NCBI RefSeq assembly: GCF_050920415.1
Contig: NZ_CP169309.1
DNA length: 64,000 bases
Source of the DNA: Escherichia coli
GTDB taxonomy: Bacteria; Pseudomonadota; Gammaproteobacteria; Enterobacterales; Enterobacteriaceae
Reading direction: 5' to 3' (one strand)
Shown: one piece after another, positions 11,206 to 54,451 of the stretch
Position numbering within the stretch: the first letter of the stretch is position 1
Layout of the letters: every line of letters starts with the position of its first letter
Notes under the pieces: generated by a model
Database searches by the model: none
What the model was told of the DNA's origin: nothing
Seen by the model: only the letters and a program-made list of their open reading frames with translations
Position numbers and translations under genes: made by a program

Positions 11206-11281
<76 letters not shown>

Positions 11282-11316: not shown

Positions 11317-11392
<76 letters not shown>

Positions 11393-26790: not shown

Positions 26791-26937
26791 TTATTGCTGT
26801 GCTTTTGTTGCTGCACCAGAAATCGCGTTACCGCCATCAGAGATATCTTCACCAACGCCACGCGTGGTGTTGCAGGCAGTTAATACTGTTGAAAGCACCA
26901 GAACAGAAAAGATCGCTGCAATTGTCTTCTTCACCAT
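26791..26937 (-). CDS. ecnB: Entericidin B lipoprotein
   Basis: 48-aa [51 protein letters not shown]; below the ORF-track size cut-off; lipobox LTAC. Confidence 0.85.
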
Positions 26938-27047: not shown

Positions 27048-27173
27048 TTAGCTGGCAGCGCGGGAGATGGAGTTGCCGAGATGTTTGATATCTTCGCCGA
27101 AACCGCGAGCGGTGTTACAGCCCGTGAGCAGCGTGCTGGCAAGCAAAACAAGAACGATAAGGCGTTTCATCAT
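27048..27173 (-). CDS. ecnA: Entericidin A lipoprotein
   Basis: 41-aa [44 protein letters not shown]; lipobox LTGC. Confidence 0.85.
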
Positions 27174-40553: not shown

Positions 40554-40629
40554 GCCCGGATAGCTCAGTCGGTAGAGCAGGGGATTGAAAATCCCCGTGT
40601 CCTTGGTTCGATTCCGAGTCCGGGCACCA
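40554..40629 (+). tRNA. pheU: tRNA-Phe (anticodon GAA)
   Basis: GCCCGGATAGCTCAGTCGGTAGAGCAGGGGATTGAAAATCCCCGTGTCCTTGGTTCGATTCCGAGTCCGGGCACCA. Confidence 0.95.
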
Positions 40630-48477: not shown

Positions 48478-49995
48478 ATGTCTGAACGAGAAACACGGGG
48501 AGCCAATGAGGCTATTGATTTTAACGATGAACTGAGAAATCGCCGCGAAAAACTGGCAGCACTGCGTCAGCAAGGTGTGGCGTTTCCTAATGATTTTCGC
48601 CGCGACCATACCTCTGACCAGTTGCACGAAGAGTTTGATGCGAAGGATAACCAGGAACTGGAATCCTTAAACATTGAAGTCTCGGTTGCTGGCCGAATGA
48701 TGACCCGTCGTATCATGGGGAAAGCCTCCTTTGTAACGTTGCAGGATGTCGGTGGCCGTATTCAACTGTACGTTGCACGAGATAGCCTGCCAGAAGGTGT
48801 TTATAACGATCAGTTTAAAAAATGGGACCTCGGCGACATTATCGGTGCCCGCGGTACGCTGTTTAAGACGCAAACGGGTGAACTTTCCATTCACTGTACT
48901 GAGCTGCGCCTGCTGACTAAAGCACTACGTCCTTTACCAGATAAATTCCATGGTCTGCAGGATCAGGAAGTCCGTTATCGTCAACGTTATCTGGACCTCA
49001 TCGCTAACGATAAATCCCGTCAAACGTTTGTTGTCCGTTCAAAAATTCTGGCCGCTATCCGCCAGTTCATGGTCGCGCGCGGCTTTATGGAAGTAGAAAC
49101 CCCGATGATGCAGGTAATTCCAGGTGGGGCATCTGCTCGCCCGTTTATTACCCATCATAATGCTCTGGATTTGGATATGTACCTGCGTATTGCGCCGGAG
49201 CTATATCTGAAACGTCTGGTTGTAGGTGGTTTTGAACGGGTATTCGAAATCAACCGTAACTTCCGTAATGAAGGTATTTCTGTTCGTCATAATCCTGAGT
49301 TCACGATGATGGAACTCTACATGGCGTATGCGGATTACCACGATTTGATTGAACTGACGGAATCACTGTTCCGCACTCTGGCACAAGAGGTACTGGGTAC
49401 CACTAAAGTCACTTATGGCGAGCATGTGTTTGATTTCGGCAAACCGTTTGAAAAACTCACCATGCGCGAAGCAATCAAAAAATATCGTCCAGAAACCGAT
49501 ATGGCGGACCTGGATAATTTTGATGCTGCTAAAGCATTAGCTGAATCTATCGGAATTACGGTAGAGAAAAGCTGGGGGCTGGGACGCATTGTCACGGAGA
49601 TCTTTGATGAAGTGGCAGAAGCACATCTGATTCAGCCAACCTTTATCACGGAATATCCGGCAGAAGTGTCACCGCTGGCGCGCCGTAATGATGTTAACCC
49701 GGAAATCACCGACCGTTTTGAATTCTTCATCGGTGGTCGTGAAATCGGTAATGGTTTTAGCGAATTAAACGACGCAGAAGATCAGGCGGAACGTTTCCAG
49801 GAACAGGTTAACGCTAAAGCTGCAGGTGACGACGAAGCCATGTTCTATGACGAAGATTACGTGACTGCGCTGGAATATGGTCTGCCGCCAACCGCGGGTC
49901 TGGGTATTGGTATCGACCGAATGATTATGCTGTTTACTAACAGTCATACTATTCGCGACGTTATTCTCTTCCCGGCGATGCGTCCACAGAAATAA
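48478..49995 (+). CDS. lysU: Lysine--tRNA ligase, heat-inducible (LysU)
   Basis: ORF-track 514 aa; start set at [33 protein letters not shown]...; class II aaRS motifs; identified as lysU by its position next to cadBA/dtpC. Confidence 0.93.
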
Positions 49996-50006
49996 ATTTC
50001 ATTTTA

Positions 50007-50040
50007 ACGAACGAAGCAGTCAGACGACTGCTTCGTTCGT
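50007..50040. terminator. Bidirectional terminator-like hairpin between lysU and ghoT
   Basis: Perfect 15-bp inverted repeat ACGAACGAAGCAGTC-AGAC-GACTGCTTCGTTCGT between convergent genes; no strong T-run. Confidence 0.45.
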
Positions 50041-50113
50041 CGTTCCACAAATCCAGTTTCGAGGAGAGACGCTTCGTTTCAAGATAACCAGCGGGTCCAC
50101 TCAACTACAGCTC

Positions 50114-50287
50114 CTAAAAGAGAGAAAAAAGTAATGCCACAGGCAGGCTCATTGGCCAGGTTATTCCGACCAGAAATGCACTAAGTAAACGAATATGTGT
50201 TTTCTCATGTGAGATAAACCAGATAATGACAAAGGATATGTTCACACCAATCACATAAAAAATTAATATTTTAGAGAATAGTGCCAT
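50114..50287 (-). CDS. ghoT: Type V toxin GhoT (small membrane-lytic peptide)
   Basis: 57-aa ORF MALFSKILIFYVIGVNISFVIIWFISHEKTHIRLLSAFLVGITWPMSLPVALLFSLF, immediately downstream of ghoS; below the ORF-track size cut-off. Confidence 0.85.
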   Translation of the reverse strand: MALFSKILIFYVIGVNISFVIIWFISHEKTHIRLLSAFLVGITWPMSLPVALLFSLF

Positions 50288-50314
50288 TTTTTATGTTCTT
50301 CTTATCCTTCCTGA

Positions 50315-50611
50315 CTACTTGTAAAACTGACGGAAATAGTCATCAACGGTCATAATGTTGAGGTCAAAATCAATATCCGGTAAGTCTAAGCATTTGAGCC
50401 TGATTAAATCTTCGATTTCACTTGCGGCTAACGATGTCGTTATTGCGAAGGAATTTTCATTCAATTGTCGTGGTATCCCATATTCATCAGCCACGATAGA
50501 GGAGAAATTCATATCATACATCAATGATCTTAACCTTAAGAACACTGAGGAATAAGATGATGGATAATCAAAAGAAACAACATAAGTATTGAACTTGTTT
50601 TTACCTTCCAT
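50315..50611 (-). CDS. ghoS: Type V antitoxin GhoS (endoribonuclease)
   Basis: 98-aa ORF MEGKNKFNTYVVSFDYPSSYSSVFLRLRSLMYDMNFSS... Confidence 0.88.
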   Translation of the reverse strand: MEGKNKFNTYVVSFDYPSSYSSVFLRLRSLMYDMNFSSIVADEYGIPRQLNENSFAITTSLAASEIEDLIRLKCLDLPDIDFDLNIMTVDDYFRQFYK

Positions 50612-50840
50612 AATATGACTCCTATCAATATTAAAACGATCTGGGGACGCACAACTTATTAACCCCGATCGATGATTCTCATATAGGAGATATTCTTTTT
50701 TTTTTGCTCAGTAAAGGGGATGACTTGGGACAAGAAAACGCTCTCTCTGACCATTCTTTGTGCATCCCCCTACCCTTCAGATTCTCTCCTGCATCACACC
50801 GCGGAGAGCATGAAAAATATCGTGACTCTGTACTCTCCCA

Positions 50841-51113
50841 TCAACTGCGAATATCATCATACTCCCGCGTTTTATCAAATTCGTGTTTCGCAAATGGACA
50901 TAATGGGATAATTTTTCGTTTTTCCCGACGCATTTTTTCCACGACTTTCGCAACCAGCTGTTTACCAATCCCCTGCCCTTTCAGGCTTTCATCGACATCG
51001 GTATGTTCGATAATCGCTAAATTCTTGCCGGTCGGCACAAAGACAATTTCAGCAATTTGCTTGCCCTGTTCGTCATTAATGTAAAATTTATTGTGGCCTT
51101 CGCGTATTTCCAT
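50841..51113 (-). CDS. yjdJ: GNAT-family N-acetyltransferase YjdJ
   Basis: 90-aa ORF with GNAT acetyl-CoA motif ([16 protein letters not shown]). Confidence 0.85.
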
Positions 51114-51124
51114 TTTACCCTCGC

Positions 51125-51355
51125 TTATTTATGACGGTATTTCAGCGCGCCGCTCGGGCACGTATCAATCACTTTAACCACAGTGGCAACGTCGACTTCA
51201 TCCGGCATGATCCACGGCTTTCGTTTGAGATTAAATAACTTGCCGTTGCCACGTACGCAATTGCCAGAATGCTGACATATCGCAGTGTTGAAATAGACAT
51301 CGATCTTTTCGCCGGTATAACAGCGATAACCCCCGTCCAGTAGCGCCTGATCCAT
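51125..51355 (-). CDS. yjdI: Uncharacterised Cys-rich protein YjdI
   Basis: 76-aa ORF with several Cys residues ([25 protein letters not shown]...). Confidence 0.8.
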
Positions 51356-51535
51356 GACCTTCCCTCTCTCATCAGTATGGTTTTCACTATAAGCATAGCC
51401 CTGGAATCTTCATACAGCACTGGCAGTTTCCGTTGCCAGAGTCTCTTCCCCTATATAGCCAATCATTCTTACTCCCTTTGAATTACCCGCCTCATCAGAG
51501 ATAATGCTTAAGAAATTTGTCACACAAGGAAGCTG

Positions 51536-53167
51536 ATGAGACATTCATTGCCCTACCGTATGTTACGCAAACGTCCGATGAAATTGAGTACCACTGTGAT
51601 CTTAATGGTCAGCGCGGTACTGTTCTCGGTGCTATTGGTGGTGCATCTGATTTACTTCTCGCAAATCAGTGATATGACGCGAGACGGGCTAGCCAACAAG
51701 GCACTGGCAGTGGCGCGTACTCTCGCCGACTCGCCGGAAATCCGTCAGGGCTTGCAGAAAAAACCGCAGGAGAGCGGCATCCAGGCCATCGCGGAAGCCG
51801 TGCGCAAACGCAACGATCTGCTGTTTATTGTCGTTACCGATATGCAAAGTCTTCGCTACTCGCATCCTGAAGCCCAGCGTATTGGTCAGCCATTTAAAGG
51901 TGATGACATCCTTAAAGCGCTGAATGGCGAAGAAAATGTCGCTATCAATCGCGGTTTTCTGGCGCAGGCTTTACGCGTATTTACCCCCATCTACGATGAA
52001 AATCATAAACAAATTGGCGTGGTGGCGATCGGCCTTGAGTTAAGTCGCGTGACCCAACAGATCAATGACAGTCGCTGGAGCATCATCTGGTCGGTATTAT
52101 TTGGCATGCTGGTCGGGCTGATTGGCACCTGCATTCTGGTTAAGGTACTGAAAAAAATCCTTTTCGGCCTGGAACCCTACGAAATCTCCACGCTGTTTGA
52201 GCAACGCCAGGCCATGTTGCAGTCTATCAAAGAAGGCGTCGTTGCCGTGGACGATCGCGGCGAGGTCACGCTGATCAACGATGCCGCACAAGAATTGCTG
52301 AATTACCGTAAGTCGCAGGACGATGAGAAACTGTCGACGCTAAGCCACGCGTGGTCACAGGTGGTAGATGTCTCGGAAGTGTTACGCGACGGTACCCCGC
52401 GGCGCGACGAAGAGATTACGATTAAAGACCGGCTATTACTGATCAACACCGTTCCGGTGCGCAGTAATGGCGTTATCATCGGTGCCATTTCAACCTTCAG
52501 GGACAAAACTGAAGTACGTAAACTGATGCAGCGACTCGACGGTCTGGTCAACTATGCTGACGCGCTTCGTGAACGATCCCACGAATTTATGAATAAATTG
52601 CATGTGATTCTCGGATTATTGCATCTGAAGAGTTATAAGCAGTTGGAAGATTACATTCTCAAAACAGCCAATAACTATCAGGAAGAGATTGGCTCTCTGC
52701 TGGGTAAGATCAAATCTCCAGTTATCGCTGGTTTTTTAATCAGCAAGATTAACCGCGCGACCGATTTAGGCCATACGCTGATTTTAAACAGCGAAAGCCA
52801 GTTGCCAGACAGCGGCAGTGAAGACCAGGTCGCGACGCTGATTACCACGCTGGGAAATCTGATAGAAAACGCGCTGGAGGCATTAGGGCCGGAACCCGGT
52901 GGCGAAATTAGCGTAACATTGCACTACCGTCACGGCTGGCTGCACTGTGAAGTTAACGATGATGGACCGGGGATCGCACCCGACAAAATCGATCACATTT
53001 TTGACAAAGGTGTCTCGACAAAAGGAAGCGAGCGAGGCGTCGGTTTAGCACTTGTCAAACAACAGGTAGAAAATCTCGGCGGCAGCATCGCCGTGGAATC
53101 GGAACCCGGGATTTTCACACAATTTTTTGTCCAGATACCCTGGGATGGGGAGAGGTCGAACAGATGA
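51536..53167 (+). CDS. dcuS: C4-dicarboxylate sensor histidine kinase DcuS
   Basis: 543-aa ORF, two TM segments, periplasmic PAS, HATPase motifs. Confidence 0.95.
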   Translation: MRHSLPYRMLRKRPMKLSTTVILMVSAVLFSVLLVVHLIYFSQISDMTRDGLANKALAVARTLADSPEIRQGLQKKPQESGIQAIAEAVRKRNDLLFIVVTDMQSLRYSHPEAQRIGQPFKGDDILKALNGEENVAINRGFLAQALRVFTPIYDENHKQIGVVAIGLELSRVTQQINDSRWSIIWSVLFGMLVGLIGTCILVKVLKKILFGLEPYEISTLFEQRQAMLQSIKEGVVAVDDRGEVTLINDAAQELLNYRKSQDDEKLSTLSHAWSQVVDVSEVLRDGTPRRDEEITIKDRLLLINTVPVRSNGVIIGAISTFRDKTEVRKLMQRLDGLVNYADALRERSHEFMNKLHVILGLLHLKSYKQLEDYILKTANNYQEEIGSLLGKIKSPVIAGFLISKINRATDLGHTLILNSESQLPDSGSEDQVATLITTLGNLIENALEALGPEPGGEISVTLHYRHGWLHCEVNDDGPGIAPDKIDHIFDKGVSTKGSERGVGLALVKQQVENLGGSIAVESEPGIFTQFFVQIPWDGERSNR

Positions 53168-53883: not shown

Positions 53884-54451
53884 CGATCACGGTTATCTGT
53901 AAGTAATAATTATTACAGTAATGCAAAATACCCCTGGCACAAGTTACATCGTTCATCAGTAAAACTTGTGCCAGATCAAATATAATTCCCCCTCTCTCAC
54001 CGCTGAAAATTAATATCTCTTCGGATGAACGGTGTTTTTAATTTCAAAACGCTAACAAAAGTTAATTAACTATTATGTCGCCCACATTATGTGTATTTTT
54101 ACCCACAAATGGGTAGTTAAGAATAATCTATAAACCTGATGATACCTACCCTGAGAACAAAAATTATACCAATAAGTATCAATAAGATAGCAGCAAACAA
54201 AACATTAACATCTGCGTAGTACAAACTATAAACCCATCGCCAGAGAGTATTTCTCTCTGAAAAAACCGCTTATCACAGTGCATAAATTTGCCGCTGCTTT
54301 AATCAGCCAATATTCACTGTGAGGTATTTACTCAAGCCGGTAACGACCAAACGGATATTTAGTCAAGCTCTGAAAACAGTTCATACAAAACAGAACGTGA
54401 CTGTGATCTATTCAGCAAAAATTTAAATAGGATTATCGCGAGGGTTTACAC

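Follow-up and report, generated by a model that had tools for sequence, protein, structure and literature searches.

The two minus-strand genes at positions 50114 to 50611 of the window, by which we mean the whole 64-kb stretch of E. coli DNA analysed here, are almost certainly the chromosomal ghoST locus, the prototype type V toxin-antitoxin system, present as an intact copy that encodes wild-type proteins and is expected to work by the published mechanism. The locus is already known and annotated, and this copy is wild-type and without structural novelty. Both proteins are identical to their K-12 counterparts, the gene order is that of K-12, and the locus is found in nearly every complete E. 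coli genome.

Identity and surroundings of the two genes

An earlier note on this DNA, made from the nucleotide sequence, had described a 98-amino-acid ghoS followed on the same strand by a 57-amino-acid hydrophobic open reading frame (ORF) and had proposed that the two form a GhoS/GhoT type V pair. Listing the ORFs of all six frames over 49000..52000, with a floor of 20 amino acids, returned both ORFs, placed and oriented as that note had them. The two genes, the spacer between them and the candidate ribosome-binding elements are as follows:

50315..50611, minus strand: ghoS coding sequence, 98 amino acids plus stop, ATG start (six-frame ORF listing, Pfam)
50114..50287, minus strand: ghoT coding sequence, 57 amino acids plus stop, ATG start (six-frame ORF listing, Pfam)
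50288..50314, minus strand: ghoS-ghoT spacer, 27 nt (read from the sequence; one substitution relative to K-12)
50619..50622, minus strand: Shine-Dalgarno sequence of ghoS, GGAG, 7 nt upstream of the ATG and invariant in seven strains
50312..50305, minus strand: Shine-Dalgarno-like purine-rich element AGGAAGGA in the spacer, 17 nt before the start codon of ghoT

The two genes share a strand, with the antitoxin gene directly ahead of the toxin gene, and the order is yjdJ-ghoS-ghoT-lysU. Neither the ghoS nor the ghoT reading frame contains a frameshift or an internal stop, the kind of defect which, if resequencing showed it, would according to the earlier note refute its reading. The distance from AGGAAGGA to the ghoT start codon exceeds, in our reading, the optimal spacing. 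A 66-amino-acid ORF runs antisense within ghoS (50355..50555, plus strand); it had no Pfam match and is probably a chance frame.

The 98-amino-acid protein matched the Pfam family PF11080 (GhoS) with E=6.1e-41 and a score of 138.8 bits (cut-off 21), with residues 7-94 aligned to profile positions 6-93 of 94. It was identical at 98/98 residues to PDB 2LLZ chain A, which is named 'uncharacterized protein YjdK' and corresponds to K-12 b4128; YjdK is the former name of GhoS. The 57-amino-acid protein matched PF10753 (Toxin_GhoT_OrtT) over its full length (E=8.9e-26; 90.4 bits, cut-off 22.1) and was identical at 57/57 residues to GhoT of K-12 MG1655 (b4559), so that translating 50114..50287 and searching for similar proteins, the check that the earlier note had suggested, led to GhoT. 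No NCBIfam model matched GhoS or GhoT, from which we infer that the RefSeq product names must rest on another kind of evidence.

Compared with the K-12 MG1655 pair (YjdK/YjdO, b4128/b4559), the locus is alike in both proteins (100% identity), gene order, the length of the 27-nt spacer, the flanking genes, the distribution of GCU triplets and the hairpin downstream of ghoT. In a DNA alignment bounded by the stop codons of yjdJ and lysU, the mean column identity with K-12 was 98%. The coding differences are five synonymous substitutions, of which three fall in ghoS and two in ghoT; beyond these we found a few substitutions in the flanks, a run of ten instead of eight adenines and one compensated pair in the hairpin. 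None of these differences appears functional when judged from the sequence.

The window is a segment of the E. coli chromosome that extends from hflC to adiA and is ~99.99% identical to strain MFDS1022581 (NZ_CP169399.1). The local gene order, cadA, dtpC, lysU, ghoT, ghoS, yjdJ, yjdI, dcuS, dcuR, is the same in K-12 and also matches NZ_CP169399.1, the nearest genome, in which RefSeq names ghoS and ghoT (lysU is named lysS by PGAP). Protein identity, synteny and the annotation of the closest genome therefore bear out the type V pair that the earlier note had proposed. The GC content of ghoST is ~35%, compared with roughly 45-55% in the flanks.

Several observations concern other parts of the window. 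NZ_CP169399.1 carries an IS2 between dcuR and dcuB that the window lacks (~53984..53988, where the alignment skips 1331 bp of the reference). A tandem pair of tRNA-Gly(GCC) genes occupies 11206..11281 and 11317..11392 on the minus strand, with a spacing that differs from that in NZ_CP169399.1, which points to recombination inside the array, and a tRNA-Phe(GAA) gene is located at 40554..40629 on the plus strand. Directly upstream of sugE is a Guanidine-II (mini-ykkC) riboswitch (Rfam RF01068; 26634..26680, minus strand), whose 50.4 bits exceed the gathering score of 32. The Rfam scan, which covered the whole window, gave no match at the ghoST locus.

Sequence features and the published mechanism

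The residues and segments to which the literature assigns function are present in both proteins. R28 is reported to be the key catalytic residue of GhoS (PMC4010927), and residue 28 of the GhoS encoded here is arginine, within FLRLRSLMY. GhoT has been described as having two transmembrane domains (PMC4344625, PMC3827094); the protein encoded here has a GRAVY value of +1.5 and two hydrophobic segments, between which lies a polar loop (HEKTHIR). In Kyte-Doolittle windows of 15 residues, hydropathy exceeded 1.6 over residues ~1-27 and ranged from about 1.1 to 1.7 over residues 31-57, with a minimum at residues 23-37, HEKTHIR included. Residue 38 of GhoT is phenylalanine.

According to published work, ghoS contains GCU sites for the toxin MqsR and ghoT lacks them (PMC4344625, PMC4905990). 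We found the same distribution in the window:

50391..50491, minus strand: three GCU (MqsR-type) triplets in ghoS, with first bases at 50491, 50399 and 50391 (ghoS nucleotides 121, 213 and 221)

The 174 nt of ghoT contain no GCU triplet, and this pattern of three and none was identical in 7/7 phylogenetically diverse strains (the window, K-12, ATCC 25922, O157:H7, O111, E308 and STEC307). About 10% of mononucleotide shuffles of ghoT (174 nt, 35% GC) lack GCT, and 64% of ghoS shuffles carry at least three, so that the asymmetry is consistent with the model but statistically weak alone and not independent proof of it.

In K-12, GhoT has been characterised by experiment as a toxin (PMC4344625, PMC3827094), and the K-12 GhoS protein has been shown to be an endoribonuclease that cuts ghoT mRNA (PMC4344625, PMC4010927, PMC3997798), its targets being this mRNA and about 20 other transcripts (PMC4010927). 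A single ghoST transcript has been reported (PMC12282077, PMC11783221). On the basis of this published K-12 work on identical proteins, the copy in the window would be expected to have the RNase activity, the membrane toxicity and the MqsR cascade. According to the published model (PMC4344625, PMC4010927, PMC4905990, PMC3827094, PMC3997798, PMC12282077, PMC11783221), ghoS and ghoT would be co-transcribed from the minus strand, and GhoS, a stable Cas2-like endoribonuclease with a ferredoxin fold, would neither bind the toxin nor repress the promoter but would cleave A/U-rich stretches within the ghoT portion of the transcript, leaving the toxin untranslated. MqsR, a type II toxin that cleaves at GCU, would under stress destroy the ghoS part of the transcript at its three sites and spare the ghoT part, which has none, and the balance would shift to the toxin. 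The 57-residue GhoT, with its two transmembrane segments, would then enter and damage the inner membrane, with loss of proton motive force and ATP and the appearance of 'ghost' cells. The mqsRA genes are not among the genes of the 64-kb window.

Two known systems resemble this arrangement in part. Cas2, the CRISPR-associated endoribonuclease, is reported to be a structural homologue of GhoS, with a ferredoxin-like fold and catalytic residues in common, including R28 (PMC4010927, PMC3997798); the ghoS locus, however, has no CRISPR context, and GhoS is an antitoxin. Type I systems such as Hok/Sok also have a small hydrophobic inner-membrane toxin and control at the level of the toxin mRNA, but unlike their antisense RNA, the GhoS antitoxin is a protein RNase, encoded upstream of the toxin on the same strand (PMC3827094).

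We also looked for signals that could start and end the transcript, and mapped two regions that flank the operon:

50612..50840, minus strand: yjdJ-ghoS intergenic region, 229 nt, presumed ghoST promoter region (K-12 alignment)
50006..50041, minus strand: hairpin (16-bp stem, 4-nt loop) in the gap that separates the convergent genes ghoT and lysU (folding)

A promoter scan called no minus-strand site in the 229-nt yjdJ-ghoS region, and it called no more sites than it did in shuffled sequence; the nearest promoter-like site in the scan, TTGATA-17-GATATT, lies at 50878..50850, inside the end of yjdJ. Within the upstream region, the adenine run at 50696..50705, read in the direction of ghoS, has ten bases (A10) both in the window and in ATCC 25922 but eight (A8) in K-12, O157, O111, E308 and STEC307. 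On the other side of the operon, the hairpin was far more stable than shuffles, whichever strand was folded (z = -4.3 and -5.2; 0/200 shuffles as stable). Its pair 50039/50008 is C-G in the window and U-A in K-12, O157, E308 and STEC307, whereas ATCC 25922 and O111 have a C.A mismatch there; this gives mild support to a conserved structure. This hairpin is probably the transcript-end or terminator hairpin of ghoT and lysU. A simple terminator scan called none at the locus, the hairpin being passed over because its T tract is weak. We found no terminator-like site between ghoS and ghoT, the strong hairpin coming only after ghoT, and the fold of the ghoT mRNA region was like that of shuffles (z = -0.54).

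Distribution, conservation and alternative readings

The 845-bp locus, which is almost always chromosomal, was present in 5342/5426 complete E. coli genomes (median copy number one), and 84 complete genomes had no match to it. Strain ET734 (NZ_CP100922.1) has naturally lost ghoST: homology to the window stops 47 nt past yjdJ at an IS1, beyond which are foreign genes (inovirus-type Gp2, an AlpA regulator and IS903B), and this break at the IS1 indicates that ghoST can be lost via IS-associated rearrangement. A search of the plasmid collection returned nine full matches, all of them in 'non-mobilizable' E. coli records of 94 kb to 4.9 Mb. Most of these nine records are evidently chromosomes or pieces of chromosomes filed as plasmids, and a plasmid-borne ghoST is therefore unsupported. 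The phage genomes gave no DNA match to ghoST, and no PADLOC defence model matched at the locus.

A single alternative is still live, although in our view unlikely, namely that the genes are genuine ghoST and that the published model leaves something out, or errs in part, where physiology is concerned, with GhoT controlled in another way or serving another role, such as phage defence, or none. Such a reading would accommodate the natural loss of the locus, seen in the genomes without a match and next to IS1 in ET734, as well as the weakness of the GCU asymmetry when taken alone. It would also fit the distant Shine-Dalgarno-like element of ghoT, as weak translation could itself restrict the toxin. 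In addition, a passage in PMC11783221 that cites LeRoux et al. 2020 states that when transcription of toxin-antitoxin operons is induced, the toxin is not necessarily active. Independent papers, however, fit the published model: a CRISPRi screen found the fitness cost of ghoS knock-down to be much greater than that of ghoT knock-down (PMC12282077), and at high ppGpp the ghoT transcript is enriched over ghoS (PMC11783221). The lack of a PADLOC match and of a homologue in phage genomes also argues against a different role in defence. We found no sequence evidence against the identification of the locus as ghoST, and the caveats concern its mechanism.

We think it very improbable that ghoST, with its low GC content and its near-fixation despite occasional loss, serves some undescribed primary role, for instance in phage defence by abortive infection or in stabilising the chromosomal region in which it lies. 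If it did, the MqsR/GCU story would be secondary; the present data give no support to this idea.

The identification as ghoST is further distinguished from two other readings of the 57-amino-acid ORF by its variation among the seven strains and by comparison with its relatives. The variation among the strains was as follows:

ghoT: 1.7% variable columns; variable codons 3 synonymous and 0 non-synonymous
ghoS: 3.4% variable columns; variable codons 7 synonymous and 3 non-synonymous
Flanks: roughly 6-10% variable columns, allowing for trimmed ends

The GhoT protein carries the accession WP_001173343.1 in 6/6 RefSeq records whose annotation tables were examined. As read from the aligned sequences, this variation is the pattern that would be expected for expressed, constrained genes under purifying selection.

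OrtT (YdcX), an orphan GhoT-like toxin of E. coli, shares with GhoT the family PF10753, a length of 57 amino acids, two transmembrane segments and membrane damage, but it is only 63% identical and lacks an antitoxin; GhoS does not neutralise it, and its gene contains two GCU sites (PMC4344625). Its locus, ydcR-patD-yncL-ortT, is also a different one. Members of the GhoT/OrtT family without a detectable GhoS exist on Pantoea megaplasmids, in an ortT context in Salmonella and elsewhere, in agreement with OrtT as a published orphan toxin (PMC4344625). Given such relatives, the ORF in the window could in principle be an orphan OrtT-type toxin that by chance lies beside an unrelated gene. We give this reading practically no credence and regard it as ruled out: the protein is 100% and not 63% identical to GhoT, it is encoded 27 nt downstream of a gene for a 100% identical GhoS, and the context is yjdJ...lysU, that is, the synteny of ghoST and not of ortT.

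One GhoS-less family member is encoded on the Pantoea agglomerans plasmid NZ_CP031650.1, where a toxin 56% identical to GhoT has no detectable GhoS and its gene is followed by a 56-amino-acid hypothetical gene. Such a GhoT/OrtT-family gene was found in 78 Pantoea megaplasmid records.

That the ORF is a chance, unexpressed frame in AT-rich DNA, as its short length below the usual cut-offs and the absence of a close Shine-Dalgarno sequence might suggest, is hardly conceivable and is ruled out by the Pfam match, by identity to the K-12 protein, whose toxicity was characterised by experiment, and by conservation, as the protein is identical in seven divergent strains with synonymous changes only, whereas the flanks vary more.

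Small genes and length cut-offs

The earlier note had drawn attention to the absence of the toxin from the ORF track, and we found that the 57-amino-acid ORF does go unlisted at the default cut-off of 60 amino acids. Its broader claim, that a length-filtered annotation would miss the toxin, is correct for a naive filter, which drops ghoT, but not for current pipelines, which call it. RefSeq annotated both ghoS and ghoT in the best 12 matches and in 39/39 full-length matches sampled evenly down the ranking. The K-12 locus tag of ghoT, b4559, is out of series, as it stands between b4128 and b4129, which suggests that ghoT was added after the first annotation of K-12. We therefore consider the point about a missed toxin to be historically right and long since fixed. 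The biology of ghoST has been in print since 2012, Wang et al. 2012 and 2013 reportedly being the primary papers, and RefSeq carries its annotation in practically all E. coli genomes. What remains is a methodological lesson only, namely that ORF tracks with a floor of 60 amino acids conceal genuine small proteins. Two further small genes in the window are also under this cut-off: ecnB (48 amino acids; 26791..26937, minus strand) and ecnA (41 amino acids; 27048..27173, minus strand), which make up the entericidin lipoprotein toxin/antitoxin pair (Pfam PF08085) and are named in the closest RefSeq genome.
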